Shown here: positions 42,524-46,233 of the stretch, one piece after another
Layout: each line of letters begins with the position of its first letter
Numbering within the stretch: position 1 is the stretch's first letter
Sequence record: PZ386947.1
DNA: 64,000 nt
Reading direction: 5' to 3' (one strand)
Source of the DNA: a phage
Translations under genes and position numbers: made by a program
Notes under the pieces: generated by a model
The model's input: only the letters and a program-made list of their open reading frames with translations
Told to the model about the DNA's origin: nothing
Database searches by the model: none

Positions 42524-42997
42524 TTATTTGATTTGTTTAGCAGACCAAATGCGATCTTTAATAATTTTTTGGATGTCTTCAACATACTCAAGAGAGTGAG
42601 CATGTGGATTATCTTTGAAACTATAAGCACGAGCTAGTTTTTGGCCTTCAGTTTTGATTACTAAAAGCTCTTTAAGGATAGCTTCATATTTGGAGATAAT
42701 TCCTTTAACAATATTTTTTTCTTGTGCAGCTTTAGGATCTGCTTTAGGAGCAGGTTTACCCGAAGCCTTTGCAAAAGCAGCGCCAGTAGCAACTAAACTT
42801 TTCCAGGCCATACTAACTGCATTTCCCGTAAATCCTTCCGCTTTCATGTCGCGTGCGAACTGGAATCGCGATTCATCAGAAGCATCTTTATAAGAATATT
42901 TACCCGCTGCAATGGCTGCTTTTGCGACAGCTTGAATTTCGGTGCTAGATGCTTCATTTAACACCGCTTCATTTAAAAATTGAGTATATGATTTCAT
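42524..42997 (-). CDS. internal-protein-like basic protein with capsid targeting sequence
   Basis: 157 aa; N-terminus MKSYTQFLNEA resembles the T4 IP capsid-targeting sequence MKTYQEFIAEA with an L-x-E prohead protease site; Ala/Lys-rich. Confidence 0.6.
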   Translation of the reverse strand: MKSYTQFLNEAVLNEASSTEIQAVAKAAIAAGKYSYKDASDESRFQFARDMKAEGFTGNAVSMAWKSLVATGAAFAKASGKPAPKADPKAAQEKNIVKGIISKYEAILKELLVIKTEGQKLARAYSFKDNPHAHSLEYVEDIQKIIKDRIWSAKQIK

Positions 42998-43044
42998 CTT
43001 ATTTCCTGTTTTAATTCGTGGTTTTAATATACTTATTTATACTA

Positions 43045-43070
43045 AAAAGCCCCAACCTTTCGGTCGGGGC
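43045..43070 (-). terminator. rho-independent terminator (copy 2)
   Basis: Same hairpin AAAAGCCCCAACCTTTCGGTCGGGGCTAAG; minus-strand U-tract follows. Confidence 0.6.
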
Positions 43071-43122
43071 TAAGCCTTGCGGCAACCTTGTCGGGGTTCC
43101 ACCTGCTAAGGCAAGTGTTTGT

Positions 43123-43213
43123 ACGAAACGCCGGGATTCGAACCCGGTTATTAAGCAGTTGACGCTACTCAATATTTTTAAAAGGCCATATCTCGACCAT
43201 ATCCGAACGTTCC
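43123..43213 (-). ncRNA. candidate structured small RNA / tRNA remnant
   Basis: GC-rich non-coding stretch with a perfect tRNA-like T-arm (CCGGG-ATTCGAA-CCCGG, plus coords 43131-43147) but no foldable anticodon arm. Confidence 0.3.
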
Positions 43214-43380
43214 GTCAAAAACGCTACTCGGCTTACGGCAAAGATATTTCCTCGAATCGATAATTCGGTGCGCCGTTTCTGCTGTGATGTAAGAGGGCAT
43301 CAATAAACGCAAAGATTATTAACGCAATTCCTTACTCAGGGAACATCAGTCCGACGACTTACCGGTAGCGACCCGGTTTC

Positions 43381-43731
43381 TTAATATTCTTTTAAAGCAT
43401 CAATCTGTTTACGGCGTTCACGCCATAAATCAATTGCTTCATACGCGGATTCAACATTTCGAATTGGACGGCATTTATATAAAGATTTGTGATTTTGATA
43501 TTGCGTAGATAACGGAATTTTATCTAAAAGGTCTTTACGTTCAAAGTATTCGTAACCATCTAAGCCAAATGAACGATTTTTGAGAAATTGCCAATGACCA
43601 AATTCGTTTTGAATATAAATATAATCCGCATGTTGATAAAGTAAATTAATTTCACGAAATGAGATATGTTTTTCATATTCATTGAAGTAAAATGTTAAAT
43701 CATGAACTACTAAATAAACATTACCTTTCAT
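43381..43731 (-). CDS. hypothetical protein
   Basis: 116 aa ORF between the small-RNA region and tRNA-Arg. Confidence 0.5.
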   Translation of the reverse strand: MKGNVYLVVHDLTFYFNEYEKHISFREINLLYQHADYIYIQNEFGHWQFLKNRSFGLDGYEYFERKDLLDKIPLSTQYQNHKSLYKCRPIRNVESAYEAIDLWRERRKQIDALKEY

Positions 43732-43749
43732 ATTTTCCTCACTTATAAT

Positions 43750-43825
43750 TGGTCGAGGCAGTAGGGATCGAACCTACGACCTAGGACTTAGAAGGTCCTT
43801 GCTCTTCCTTCTGAGCTATGCCCCG
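43750..43825 (-). tRNA. tRNA-Arg (anticodon UCU)
   Basis: Hand-folded: acceptor CGGGGCA/TGCCTCG, T-arm CCTAC-GATCGAA-GTAGG (plus view), anticodon loop CTTCTAA, encoded CCA. Confidence 0.85.
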
Positions 43826-43829
43826 TAAT

Positions 43830-43919
43830 TGGGGTGACCGATGGGAGTCGAACCACCCGAGTCGCAATGACAATGGATTTACAGTCCACACCGCTACCTC
43901 TACGGGATAACTCCCCTTA
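43830..43919 (-). ncRNA. tRNA-like RNA with Tyr-type anticodon loop (possible pseudo-tRNA or stable RNA)
   Basis: Sits between tRNA-Arg and tRNA-Ile with CCA-like end; good anticodon stem-loop GUGGA-CUGUAAA-UCCAU but T-stem and acceptor stem do not pair canonically. Confidence 0.35.
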
Positions 43920-43929
43920 ATTCTTAATT

Positions 43930-44004
43930 TGGTGGCCCTGGGTGGAATTGAACCACCATCTGGCGATTATGAGTCGCTTGCTTGAACCTTCCAGCTACAG
44001 GGCC
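43930..44004 (-). tRNA. tRNA-Ile (anticodon CAU, Ile2-type; Met not excluded)
   Basis: Acceptor GGCCCTG, T-arm GGTGG-TTCAATT-CCACC, anticodon loop CTCATAA, encoded CCA. Confidence 0.8.
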
Positions 44005-44005
44005 T

Positions 44006-44081
44006 TGGTGCTGATTGACGGAATCGAACCGCCGACCTTCTCATTACAAGTGAGTTGCTCTACCTACTGAGCTAAATCAGC
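44006..44081 (-). tRNA. tRNA-Thr (anticodon UGU)
   Basis: Acceptor GCTGATT, T-arm GGCGG-TTCGATT-CCGTC, anticodon loop CTTGTAA, encoded CCA. Confidence 0.85.
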
Positions 44082-44086
44082 AAAAC

Positions 44087-44176
44087 TGGCGGAGGCGATA
44101 GGATTTGAACCTATGAGTCGCCGGAGCGACTGCCGGTTTTCAAGACCGGTGCATTAAACCACTCTGCCACGCCTCC
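44087..44176 (-). tRNA. tRNA-Ser (anticodon UGA), class II
   Basis: Sequence GGAGGCGTGGCAGAGTGG...CCGGTCTTGAAAACCGG... with long variable arm; matches T4 tRNA-Ser as I recall it. Confidence 0.9.
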
Positions 44177-44182
44177 AAATAT

Positions 44183-44833
44183 TTATATATTGTTAATTTG
44201 ATTTAGAATTCTTTTTGCTTGAGTATGACTTACGCCAATATGCTTAGCATATTTAGACAATTCGCCACGTTTAGAAAAATCATATAATTTAGAAATTTCT
44301 ATTCTTCTTTTTCTTTCATCCGCAGAAACTTTTGCTTCGTTTGCTTTTGCTATTTTACGTTTAGCTTCTTGAGAATGAGTTTTACCAGCAAAGCCATTCT
44401 TCATTAATCCATTTGAAGACCATCCTTTTAATTTTCCGTTAGAATGTGCCTTTTTAACACCCAATGAAATTAATTCGCGTTGCTGATCTGTCATAGGATA
44501 ATTATTTATATGATCCCATCCACCTTCACCTCCAAGTTTTAAATTATACACATCTGGTCTATTTAAAAACTCTTCTGTGACAATATTTTTCTCGGCTTCA
44601 AGCATAGATTCTTTATCGTCAAAATACTCTAATATTTCTTTAGAAAAATTTTCTATACCATATTTATCTTGGGCTCTTTTTAATAATTTACCAGAACCCA
44701 TATATCCATCATCTAAATTTTCGGTAGAATGCACACCAATATAAATTTTATTATTAATTTTATTTGTTATTTTATAAAGATAAAAATGCATATCAGTCCC
44801 TAATAAAGAACTGAGCGTCTCACGACGAGTCAT
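44183..44833 (-). CDS. segB: GIY-YIG homing endonuclease (SegB-like)
   Basis: 216 aa; GIY-YIG motif FYLYKITNKINNKIYIGVH; C-terminal DNA-binding region; sits inside the tRNA cluster as T4 segB does. Confidence 0.85.
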   Translation of the reverse strand: MTRRETLSSLLGTDMHFYLYKITNKINNKIYIGVHSTENLDDGYMGSGKLLKRAQDKYGIENFSKEILEYFDDKESMLEAEKNIVTEEFLNRPDVYNLKLGGEGGWDHINNYPMTDQQRELISLGVKKAHSNGKLKGWSSNGLMKNGFAGKTHSQEAKRKIAKANEAKVSADERKRRIEISKLYDFSKRGELSKYAKHIGVSHTQAKRILNQINNI

Positions 44834-44837
44834 AAAT

Positions 44838-44911
<74 letters not shown>

Positions 44912-44916
44912 AAATT

Positions 44917-45003
44917 TGGTGCGAGAAGTGGGACTCGAACCCACAAGGAAATCATTCCGCAGCATTTTAAGTGCTGTGCCTTTACCAATTTGACCATTCT
45001 CGC
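44917..45003 (-). tRNA. tRNA-Leu (anticodon UAA), class II
   Basis: Acceptor GCGAGAA, long variable arm, anticodon loop CTTAAAA, T-arm GTGGG-TTCGAGT-CCCAC, encoded CCA. Confidence 0.88.
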
Positions 45004-45009
45004 GCTATA

Positions 45010-45642
45010 TTATTTATTACGTGAAAAAGACTGTTCTATCAATTCTGGACACTTTCGTTCTATCCATTTTCTAGCTTTTTGTGGGCTTATACCTATTATT
45101 TTAGCAGCTTTACTAACCCATCCAAATTTAGAATAATCGATTTTAACTAATTCTTCGTAAATTTCATCAGTTAAAATCTTTTCATTAATATTTACCAGTA
45201 AATGATATAATTTATTATCATTAGCAATTTTAATGAATCTTTTATAGTTTCCGCCTTTACTTAAACCTAATGAAGTAATTGCAGATGATATAGTAGCCGA
45301 ATTTAATAGTGCGTTTAAAATTTCTTCATCACTAACATTATAACGCTTTTTATTATTTTTAATATTTTTACCAGCAAAAGTATCAGTTTGCGAATGGCAG
45401 TTTGGACATAATAATCTTAAATTTGATTTAAGATGATTTTTGTTATTTCCATCAATATGGTCTAATTGCAGAACAATATGCTTATTTTGCCATTTTGAAA
45501 TTTTACAAATTGCACACTCATATGGAAAAATATTTTCTTTTATTATTTTGTCTTTCAGCTTTCCTGTACTAAAATTTGGATGTTTTCCTTCAAAAATTTC
45601 AGCTAATTTAGTATCCATAATATGATTCCCAATTATTAACAA
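45010..45642 (-). CDS. HNH homing endonuclease (zinc-finger HNH type)
   Basis: 210 aa; CAIC...HIVLQLDHIDGNNKNHLKSNLRLLCPNCH HNH-Zn motif; stop codon 7 nt from the tRNA-Leu 5' end. Confidence 0.85.
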   Translation of the reverse strand: MLIIGNHIMDTKLAEIFEGKHPNFSTGKLKDKIIKENIFPYECAICKISKWQNKHIVLQLDHIDGNNKNHLKSNLRLLCPNCHSQTDTFAGKNIKNNKKRYNVSDEEILNALLNSATISSAITSLGLSKGGNYKRFIKIANDNKLYHLLVNINEKILTDEIYEELVKIDYSKFGWVSKAAKIIGISPQKARKWIERKCPELIEQSFSRNK

Positions 45643-45717
45643 AGGCTCTCTAACAAGAACCCTTGATGATAGAGGGTATTAATCAGTGCGGTATGAGTTA
45701 ATAATAACAAATAATTC

Positions 45718-46233
45718 TTAAAGCAAATTAAACATTTTAACGGTCGGCAAAACAATTTCTTTTTCTATATAAGAGTATTTAACACTCTCAACTACACGCA
45801 AAAAATCATAATCATAATACTCAGAAGCATTACCTAAAATATTAATAAGTCCTTCAAGCACTTTATTACCATTCACAAAGAATAAGTCAAATACGCGTTC
45901 TTCGTCTTCTTCGGATTTATTACCAAGGTCAACTTCTATATCAAAGACCTTTTTAATGAATTCTGGATAAAGTTGTTCTGAGAACAGTCCTTCAACCAAG
46001 TATTCATAAATAAAAAGCGATTGCTCGCTGAACAAGCCATTACCACAATAACGTTCAGCTTTAGTACTAGAATGTCTACTTTTAAACTTCTTTAAAAGAT
46101 ATTGAAATTGTAAGATTTCATGCTCTTCTACGCCAAACAGTGTTTTAGTTTTATAGTTGTCACCATCATTTTCCCAGGTAGTGACATCAATTACGTAACC
46201 CTGTGGAATTGTAGTACCTAAACAAATATTCAT
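45718..46233 (-). CDS. hypothetical protein
   Basis: 171 aa ORF. Confidence 0.55.
   Translation of the reverse strand: MNICLGTTIPQGYVIDVTTWENDGDNYKTKTLFGVEEHEILQFQYLLKKFKSRHSSTKAERYCGNGLFSEQSLFIYEYLVEGLFSEQLYPEFIKKVFDIEVDLGNKSEEDEERVFDLFFVNGNKVLEGLINILGNASEYYDYDFLRVVESVKYSYIEKEIVLPTVKMFNLL

Follow-up and report, generated by a model that had tools for sequence, protein, structure and literature searches.

The element described here lies within the tRNA cluster of a T4-like phage, on the minus strand of the window (by which we mean the whole 64,000-nt stretch of DNA that was analysed). A 501-bp query around it matches Shigella phage CM8 (MK962750, Tequatrovirus) at 100% identity and hundreds of further T4-like phages at 93-99%. 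ARAGORN calls six tRNAs in the window, all of which are supported by Rfam at 59-73 bits, and the cluster includes a gene for a SegB-like homing endonuclease (Table 1). In the 104-nt interval from the CAT-anticodon tRNA to tRNA-Arg (43826-43929) the GenBank annotation of CM8 has nothing, and a search of the whole window with Rfam at gathering thresholds returned the six intact tRNAs and nothing else. The first-pass annotation had placed a 90-nt tRNA-like element at 43830-43919, between tRNA-Arg and tRNA-Ile. The location and the arginine tRNA are correct, but the unit is 87 nt long, nucleotides 43917-43919 being spacer, and the other neighbour has the anticodon CAT and is tRNA-Met according to both ARAGORN and GenBank.

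Table 1. Features of the tRNA cluster around the element, with positions in the window and the evidence for each.
Feature	Position	Strand	Evidence
tRNA-Leu	45003-44917	-	ARAGORN, Rfam
tRNA-Gly	44911-44838	-	ARAGORN, Rfam
SegB-like GIY-YIG homing endonuclease gene (216 aa), within the tRNA cluster	44183-44833	-	Pfam GIY-YIG, E = 6.3e-06
tRNA-Ser	44176-44087	-	ARAGORN, Rfam
tRNA-Thr	44081-44006	-	ARAGORN, Rfam
CAT-anticodon tRNA (called Met), intact upstream neighbour	44004-43930	-	ARAGORN; Rfam 59.9 bits
Probable hybrid tRNA-Tyr/tRNA-His pseudogene (87 nt), GGGGAGUUAUCCCGUAGAGGUAGCGGUGUGGACUGUAAAUCCAUUGUCAUUGCGACUCGGGUGGUUCGACUCCCAUCGGUCACCCCA	43830-43916	-	Alignments to KIT03, phiC600P9, IME339 and A2
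Tyr(GUA)-derived part, hybrid nt 1-73	43844-43916	-	72/73 to KIT03 and T6 tRNA-Tyr; 100% to A2
Deletion junction, one kept copy of the 11-bp direct repeat GGTTCGACTCC (T-loop motif)	43844-43854	-	Comparison with A2
His-derived part, last 14 nt, CAUCGGUCACCCCA	43830-43843	-	Identical to KIT03 and A2 tRNA-His 3' end
tRNA-Arg(TCT), intact downstream neighbour	43825-43750	-	ARAGORN; Rfam 66.1 bits
rnaD homologue	43267-43381		99.1% identity to T4
rnaC homologue	43122-43260		98.6% identity to T4

The element is spaced like a tRNA, with 13 nt separating it from the tRNA upstream and 4 nt from the tRNA downstream on the minus strand, and its length is also that of an intact tRNA-Tyr. The anticodon arm (GUGGA-CUGUAAA-UCCAU) has all five stem pairs, a 7-nt loop and the anticodon GUA at 43882-43880; the D stem is CCGU/GCGG, in a D arm containing GG; and the variable region of 15 nt makes a long variable arm. 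These three arms are unchanged from tRNA-Tyr. The T-loop found in the element, GGUUCGACU, keeps a loop motif of the GGUUCGAnU type, and the element terminates 3' in ...CACCCCA. When it is read in the tRNA register, the T stem (GGUGG/CCCAU) forms three of its five pairs, one of them G-U, with two adjacent mismatches at the centre, and the acceptor stem (GGGGAGU/CGGUCAC) forms three of seven (G1-C83, G3-C81 and the single G-U, G4-U80), the other four positions being mismatched. The first-pass annotation had described this architecture accurately, including the spacing between two tRNAs, the good GUA anticodon arm, the long variable region, the CCA-like terminus and the failure of the T and acceptor stems to pair properly. 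A protein-coding reading was rejected, since only ORFs of 28-36 aa run across the element on both strands and relatives have tRNA genes at this position.

ARAGORN leaves the element uncalled in CM8 and also in phage vB_EcoM_IME339 (hereafter IME339), which carries the same structure, whereas it does call the intact tRNA-Tyr gene. A permissive Rfam search of the 2.3 kb from 42900 to 45200 gave the element 22.7 bits (E = 0.12) against RF00005, for which the gathering score is 29, and matched it to no family besides this sub-threshold tRNA. In the Rfam alignment the T arm is bypassed and the 5' end is paired to the T-loop; the remaining rows of the permissive search either hit the tRNA genes, in antisense or with overlap, or are weak and due to chance. 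The score alone discriminates poorly, because covariance models match even the intact phage tRNA-Tyr weakly, its best Rfam row being tRNA-Sec at 30.9 bits, below threshold. The main argument against a tRNA is thus the broken helices and the contrast in ARAGORN calls, rather than the Rfam score.

Comparison with related phages shows that the element combines parts of two tRNA genes. Its first 73 nt, which span the 5' strand of the acceptor stem, the D, anticodon and variable arms, the 5' strand of the T stem and the T-loop, agree with the tRNA-Tyr of phage KIT03 at 72 of 73 positions (E = 2e-35 within the window), and the T6 tRNA-Tyr has the same sequence as that of KIT03. The sole difference is a C at 43876 in the anticodon stem, where pairing is kept; it is a polymorphism that phiC600P9 and L006 also have in their intact Tyr genes. 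The last 14 nt correspond to the 3' strand of the T stem, the 3' strand of the acceptor stem, C73 and the encoded CCA of tRNA-His. Over its last 25 nt the element matches the 3' end of KIT03 tRNA-His at 24 positions (E = 9e-07), and it is followed by the same AATTA spacer, and then tRNA-Arg, as in KIT03 and A2. Phage A2 matches both parts at 100% identity, and both are in register with their parent genes, 73 nt of Tyr and 14 nt of His making up the 87 nt. Judged by these alignments, the tRNA ancestry of the element is far beyond chance. The intact tRNA-Tyr(GUA) genes of T6, T2, KIT03 and A2, whose first 73 nt are identical to the element or match it at 72 positions, pair completely in the T stem (GGUGG/CCACC) and in the acceptor stem (GGGGAGU/ACUCCCC) and carry A73 and CCA, in contrast to three of five and three of seven pairs here. 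This accounts for everything noted in the first-pass annotation: an arm with both strands from Tyr is fully intact, the T and acceptor stems fail to pair because one strand of each is from Tyr and the other from His, and the CCA-like end is the C73-CCA that tRNA-His encodes.

The gene order between these neighbours is Met - Tyr - Asn - 114-nt spacer - His - Arg in KIT03 and Met - Tyr - Asn - Arg in phiC600P9. The CM8 sequence at 43750-44004 (255 nt) is equivalent to the Met-to-Arg segment of A2 (524 nt) minus exactly 269 bp. The prefix and suffix common to CM8 and A2 (161 nt and 105 nt respectively, each 100% identical) sum to 255 + 11, and A2 has two copies of the 11-mer GGTTCGACTCC, one in the T-loop of Tyr and the other, 269 bp away, in that of His. 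The sequences missing from CM8 are the last 14 nt of Tyr, tRNA-Asn, the 114-nt spacer and the 5' three-quarters of His, and no copy of any of them is found elsewhere in the window. The same comparison made against KIT03 gives the matching deletion result; viewed against KIT03 alone, the crossover is seemingly limited to a 3-nt stretch, because the His T-loop of KIT03 has T where Tyr has C, and it is A2, with identical Tyr and His T-loops, that reveals the perfect 11-mer repeat.

Our principal conclusion is that the element is very probably a tRNA pseudogene of hybrid origin, left as a scar when 269 bp were lost from a T4-like tRNA cluster. As read from the alignments, the comparison demonstrates a loss between 11-bp direct repeats with one copy kept. 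In our reading the ancestral cluster was arranged in the way common to Tequatrovirus, Met(CAT) - Tyr - Asn - 114-nt spacer - His - Arg, and its Tyr and His T-loops bore identical copies of the 11-bp sequence. Recombination, annealing or replication slippage between these repeats removed the intervening DNA and kept a single copy, and the product is Tyr nt 1-73 joined to the last 14 nt of His. Of the three first-pass suggestions, a decaying tRNA comes nearest, in so far as the tRNA is dead, but the route was not point mutation: what is seen is a clean fusion of 73 nt of Tyr to 14 nt of His.

The junction is shared by IME339, a separate isolate with a separate assembly. Its cluster differs upstream, where Gln and Pro are present and segB is absent, and an adjoining ORF of 116 codons has 32 differences from CM8 in 351 nucleotides (9%). 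The two phages have the same variant of the upstream spacer, which suggests that the junction arose in one event and has spread by descent or recombination, although it might instead have recurred at the same repeat in each. When 50,697 phage records were searched by BLAST with junction-spanning queries, only CM8 and IME339 gave a full-length match in one piece; exact scans for the junction found none in IMG/VR (27-mer and 24-mer) and none in JGI metagenomes (24-mer), while the intact Tyr T arm, used as a positive control, was found in seven IMG/VR contigs. An evenly spaced sample of matching phage records contained 14 with a Tyr-Asn-His form of ~520 bp and 15 with a Tyr-Asn form of ~330 bp, T2 being among the latter.

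With regard to what might have triggered the deletion, the SegB-like gene is a candidate. It is situated ~270 bp upstream of the hybrid and encodes a protein that is 100% identical to a KIT03 protein and 83% identical to T4 SegB over the first 117 aa, with no alignment beyond. The site of T4 SegB is 27 bp long and has a conserved core, GGTTCRANTCC, which is the tRNA T-loop; SegB cuts most of the tRNA genes of phage T2L, Tyr included, and tRNA-Asn is its preferred site (PMC2330249). Breaks made by SegB at the tRNA genes of T6 cause this same locus to be rearranged through microhomology, in a UvsX/UvsY-dependent manner (PMC13096335). The 11-mer at the CM8 junction (43854-43844) fits the SegB core with a downstream CCAR (CCAA at its 3' end), it matches eight of nine positions of the T6 SITE-seq motif RAWTSGAAC, and the deleted segment includes tRNA-Asn. 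A SegB-type break is a plausible trigger because the 11-mer fits the core and the preferred site would have lain in the deleted tRNA-Asn. Such a break within the Tyr-His interval might have been resected, after which single-strand annealing of the flanking T-loop repeats would complete the deletion. Three observations count against this. KIT03 has an identical SegB-like protein and yet keeps Tyr-Asn-His intact; the C-terminal half of the protein is without alignment to T4 SegB; and IME339 has the junction but no room for segB within its tRNA cluster, where the tRNA genes are closely spaced and no CDS is annotated between them. We would put the chance of a SegB-type break followed by annealing at somewhat below even, and spontaneous slippage or recombination at the repeat is at least as likely.

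No cloverleaf forms in the hybrid. A cloverleaf of standard pairs only has an energy of -0.3 kcal/mol in the hybrid and -24.7 kcal/mol in intact Tyr, and the ensemble probability of the acceptor and T-stem pairs is 0.0 in the hybrid as opposed to 0.86-1.0 in the intact gene. The minimum free energy (MFE) structure of the hybrid (-29.2 kcal/mol) is not a cloverleaf, and its energy is no better than that of dinucleotide shuffles (z = -0.67 for CM8 and +0.25 for IME339). These values speak against the unusually structured tRNA that the first-pass annotation raised as an option. The hybrid differs between CM8 and IME339 at 3 of 87 positions and the four intact tRNAs at 0 of 317 (Fisher p = 0.0097). 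Two of the three changes affect the His-derived tail (an A-to-C change and an extra C in IME339) and improve no pairing; one of the three is a polymorphism also present in intact Tyr genes. The comparison is weak evidence that the hybrid may be under relaxed constraint, with three differences to go on and mosaic recombination among T-even phages as a possible confounder.

As to the fate of any transcript, a scan of the window detected no promoter-like or terminator-like sites on the minus strand between the hybrid and the neighbouring tRNAs; the first terminator-like site downstream of it is past rnaC, at 43071-43048. A scan of the deleted spacer in KIT03 likewise detected no promoter-like site on the minus strand. 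With no promoter or terminator of its own nearby, the hybrid is presumed to be co-transcribed with the neighbouring tRNAs, and it would be carried within the tRNA precursor and then discarded. Since its T and acceptor strands come from two tRNAs and cannot pair, the RNA should escape RNase P, CCA-dependent processing and TyrRS, and, being unrecognised, it would be degraded as spacer RNA. The hybrid is most likely a non-functional relic, its transcription, processing and instability being predicted from sequence.

Several alternatives would give the element a function or a selected origin. It is improbable that either of two adaptive explanations applies, namely that the RNA mimics tRNA-Tyr as a decoy for defence systems such as Septu and retron-Eco7, or that the deletion was selected as self-immunisation, by removing the SegB site in tRNA-Asn. 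The first of these, in which the hybrid RNA would be kept to act as decoy or sponge against defence nucleases cutting tRNA-Tyr in its variable loop, is by itself very improbable. It would make sense of the retained anticodon and variable arms, of the match to T6 tRNA-Tyr at 72 of the first 73 positions, and of the presence of the hybrid in two diverged phages. There is also a precedent for the interaction, in that Septu cuts the T6 tRNA-Tyr at C48 in the variable arm, and overexpressed phage tRNA-Tyr partly protects the tRNA-Tyr of the host (PMC13096335). However, an RNA that lacks the acceptor and T stems would probably be unstable and offer a nuclease no tRNA L-shape, and its accumulation is putative. 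The hybrid is also rare, occurring in two genomes and in none of the IMG/VR or metagenome scans, and is more changed than the neighbouring tRNAs. Moreover, losing a chargeable tRNA-Tyr should raise, and not lower, the sensitivity of the phage to such defences.

There is only a slight chance that the element is a functional, non-canonical tRNA-Tyr with a shifted register, in which G1-G4 would pair with the 3' CCCC, A would be the discriminator and the host enzyme would add the CCA. In favour of this reading, the anticodon, D and variable arms are intact, A is the discriminator base of the intact phage Tyr gene, and a helix of G1-C86, G2-C85, G3-C84, G4-C83 and G6-C81 can be drawn, as can an extended T arm containing an internal loop. 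Against this, the structure has an energy of -14.8 kcal/mol, or -23.6 kcal/mol with the rest refolded freely, which is 6-14 kcal/mol worse than the MFE, and it contains two mismatches per helix. ARAGORN makes no such call, and in IME339 the A-to-C change and the extra C fall in the 3' strand with no gain in pairing and a worse fold (z = +0.25). The sequence is fully accounted for as what a repeat-mediated deletion left by accident.

The first-pass annotation had also proposed one of the stable small RNAs encoded by the tRNA region of T4. This is refuted for rnaC (species 1) and rnaD (species 2) and can be virtually dismissed for a new RNA of that sort: the element does lie in the tRNA cluster, and the T arm in which rnaC terminates is likewise tRNA-like and matches it over 12 nt, but the true homologues of rnaC and rnaD are elsewhere (Table 1), the alignment to the T4 RNAs yields best matches of just 12 nt (the T-loop) and 7 nt with no similarity beyond the T-loop motif, no Rfam family besides the sub-threshold tRNA is matched, the fold is no better than that of shuffles and only two genomes among the 50,697 phage records contain the element. 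An assembly or sequencing artefact, in which the two T-loop repeats of CM8 were collapsed, would suit a junction located in a repeated 11-mer, but reads are far longer than the 11-bp repeat and the identical junction in IME339, an independent isolate and assembly whose neighbouring ORF is 9% different, rules it out.

Hybrid tRNA genes of this general kind have precedents. McClain and Foss reportedly described (Cell 1984, 38:225-231) laboratory mutants of T4 in which deletions had fused two tRNA genes at short shared sequences. In those hybrids the 5' part of one gene is said to have been joined in register with the 3' part of a gene downstream, with the loss of the genes between. T4 itself is not known to carry Tyr, Asn or His tRNA genes. 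The CM8 element is like the T4 mutants in being a fusion of tRNA genes at a short shared sequence; it differs in coming from a natural isolate, in involving the Tyr/His pair and in the destruction of both coaxial stems. The CM8 element is accordingly a natural case of an already known kind of hybrid tRNA gene and an ordinary gene wreck, and demonstrates no new kind of RNA or mechanism.

The SegB systems of T6 and T2L share with CM8 the locus, the class of endonuclease and the T-loop motif GGTTCRANTCC at the end point of the rearrangement, as well as short-homology recombination following breaks, which for CM8 is putative. They differ in outcome, gene conversion and tandem amplification being reported for SegB (Chihara et al. 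2026, PMC13096335; Brok-Volchanskaya et al. 2008, PMC2330249), whereas CM8 has a deletion, and in the enzyme, since the C-terminal half of the CM8 protein differs from that of T4 SegB. The RNAs rnaC and rnaD resemble the element as non-tRNA RNAs of the same cluster, rnaC having a tRNA-like T arm at its 3' end; their homologues lie 450-800 bp downstream of the element and show no homology past the T-loop.

As a consequence of its deletion, CM8 is without the Tyr, Asn and His tRNAs found in its relatives. The T6 tRNA-Tyr is expressed and active against Septu (PMC13096335), and because the phage tRNA counters this defence in T6, it is reasonable to expect, by analogy, that CM8 may be more exposed to defences that cleave tRNA-Tyr.

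The T6 gene annotated as 'tRNA-Thr' (AP018814, 66642-66716) was recognised in this analysis as a second natural hybrid, of Pro and Thr, and it indicates that tRNA hybrids recur in this cluster. It begins with the 5' acceptor strand of tRNA-Pro (CTCCGTG), has its junction in the shared D-arm sequence TAGCTCAG and continues as a tRNA-Thr body of the T4 type, tRNA-Ser and the 3' part of Pro having been lost. Its acceptor stem is unpaired, its Rfam match is limited to model positions 8-63, and ARAGORN does not call it. Both are natural Tequatrovirus hybrids, although the junction lies in the D arm in T6 and in the T-loop in CM8, and they provide natural examples of T-even tRNA arrays shrinking through deletion between the conserved loop motifs of neighbouring genes. 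The loop motifs at hybrid junctions are also the motifs recognised by the resident SegB, which offers a testable link between cutting by the endonuclease and turnover of the tRNA repertoire. If self-immunisation were the true explanation, hybrids joined in the T-loop or D arm, such as those of CM8 and the Pro/Thr gene of T6, would be recurrent footprints of endonuclease-driven remodelling of tRNA arrays in phages exposed to SegB. GenBank lists the T6 hybrid as a normal tRNA but has no feature at the CM8 element, and the deletion described here explains the tRNA-sized gap left in the annotation of both the CM8 and IME339 genomes.

A second hybrid, beside the Tyr/His pseudo-tRNA of CM8, is found in phage T6, where the gene annotated as tRNA-Thr is a fusion of tRNA-Pro and tRNA-Thr. 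Its 5' acceptor strand is the CTCCGTG of tRNA-Pro, the junction lies within the D-arm sequence TAGCTCAG, which is common to both parents, and the body that follows is that of a T4-type tRNA-Thr; all of tRNA-Ser and the remainder of tRNA-Pro are missing from T6. The acceptor stem of the fusion is unable to pair, ARAGORN makes no call for it, and its match with Rfam (49.4 bits) is limited to model positions 8-63.

The tRNA cluster has been rearranged between short repeats elsewhere. An indel of approximately 190 bp, with its ends in the CCAAAT / CCAAT just past the 3' ends of tRNA-Asn and tRNA-His, separates the Tyr-Asn-Arg form (T2 type, L003:1626-1710) from the Tyr-Asn-His-Arg form (KIT03 type, L002:1626-1900), and this is a further rearrangement bounded by such repeats in the same cluster. 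CM8 has lost, and T2-type phages lack, the 114-nt stretch that separates tRNA-Asn from tRNA-His; this spacer opens with a perfect 7-bp palindrome (TGTGACA-AC-TGTCACA), and no promoter-like or terminator-like sites were found within it on the minus strand.

Features of the tRNA region in CM8 (window coordinates) and in its relatives (locus coordinates: L002, KIT03; L013, T6; L014, A2)
Feature	Location	Strand	Remarks
homologue of T4 rnaC	window 43122-43260	-	unannotated; 98.6% identity
homologue of T4 rnaD	window 43267-43381	-	unannotated; 99.1%, from rnaD nt 4
116-codon ORF	window 43381-43731	-	record note 'trna.2 protein'
tRNA-Arg(TCT)	window 43750-43825	-	
SegB-like protein gene	window 44183-44833	-	flanked by tRNA-Gly and tRNA-Ser
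210-aa ORF	window 45010-45642	-	apparently in place of tRNA-Gln
tRNA-Thr of T6 (annotation)	L013:643-717 (AP018814 66642-66716)		
Asn-His spacer, 114 nt	L002:1707-1820		also in L014
tRNA-His of KIT03	L002:1631-1706		C73, encoded CCA
Intact phage tRNA-Tyr	L002:1900-1986; L013:469-555		

The intact phage tRNA-Tyr, which is active in experiments, matches covariance models poorly: the highest-ranked Rfam match is to tRNA-Sec and reaches 30.9 bits, with the gathering score at 47, and RF00005 is not among the Rfam matches listed. It is called by ARAGORN. In the tRNA-His of KIT03, a U precedes G1, so that the gene does not encode a G-1 to face C73; in E. coli, HisRS normally relies on G-1 as a major identity element.

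CM8 has no tRNA-Gln; the gene lies immediately upstream of tRNA-Leu in KIT03, IME339, T4 and T6, whereas CM8 has a 210-aa ORF there, with a weak Pfam match to HNH endonucleases (E = 0.0052) that falls short of the cut-off. This ORF appears to have replaced tRNA-Gln, because the KIT03 sequence 5' of tRNA-Gln resumes at window 45632-45773. The SegB-like gene occupies the site of tRNA-Pro in T4 and IME339, while segB of T4 has tRNA-Ile on one side and tRNA-Arg on the other. Alignment of the two proteins is confined to residues 15-131 of the CM8 protein (83% identity), and its C-terminal half, with a NUMOD3-like motif, is unrelated to T4 SegB. The CM8 CDS in GenBank is 609 bp, from an internal ATG; the ORF and the KIT03 annotation are 651 bp.

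The tRNA-Arg genes of CM8 and T4 both have the anticodon TCT and are flanked by rnaD and rnaC sequences approximately 99% identical, but blastn gave no match between the two genes themselves, and the CAT-anticodon tRNA of CM8 matches T4 tRNA-Ile over 26 nt only. This divergence agrees with the 'isoacceptor' genes of T2L type that have been described (PMC2330249). In T4, rnaD directly follows tRNA-Arg, whereas in CM8 the two are separated by the 116-codon ORF, which gave no match in a Pfam search and whose stop codon adjoins the start of rnaD.
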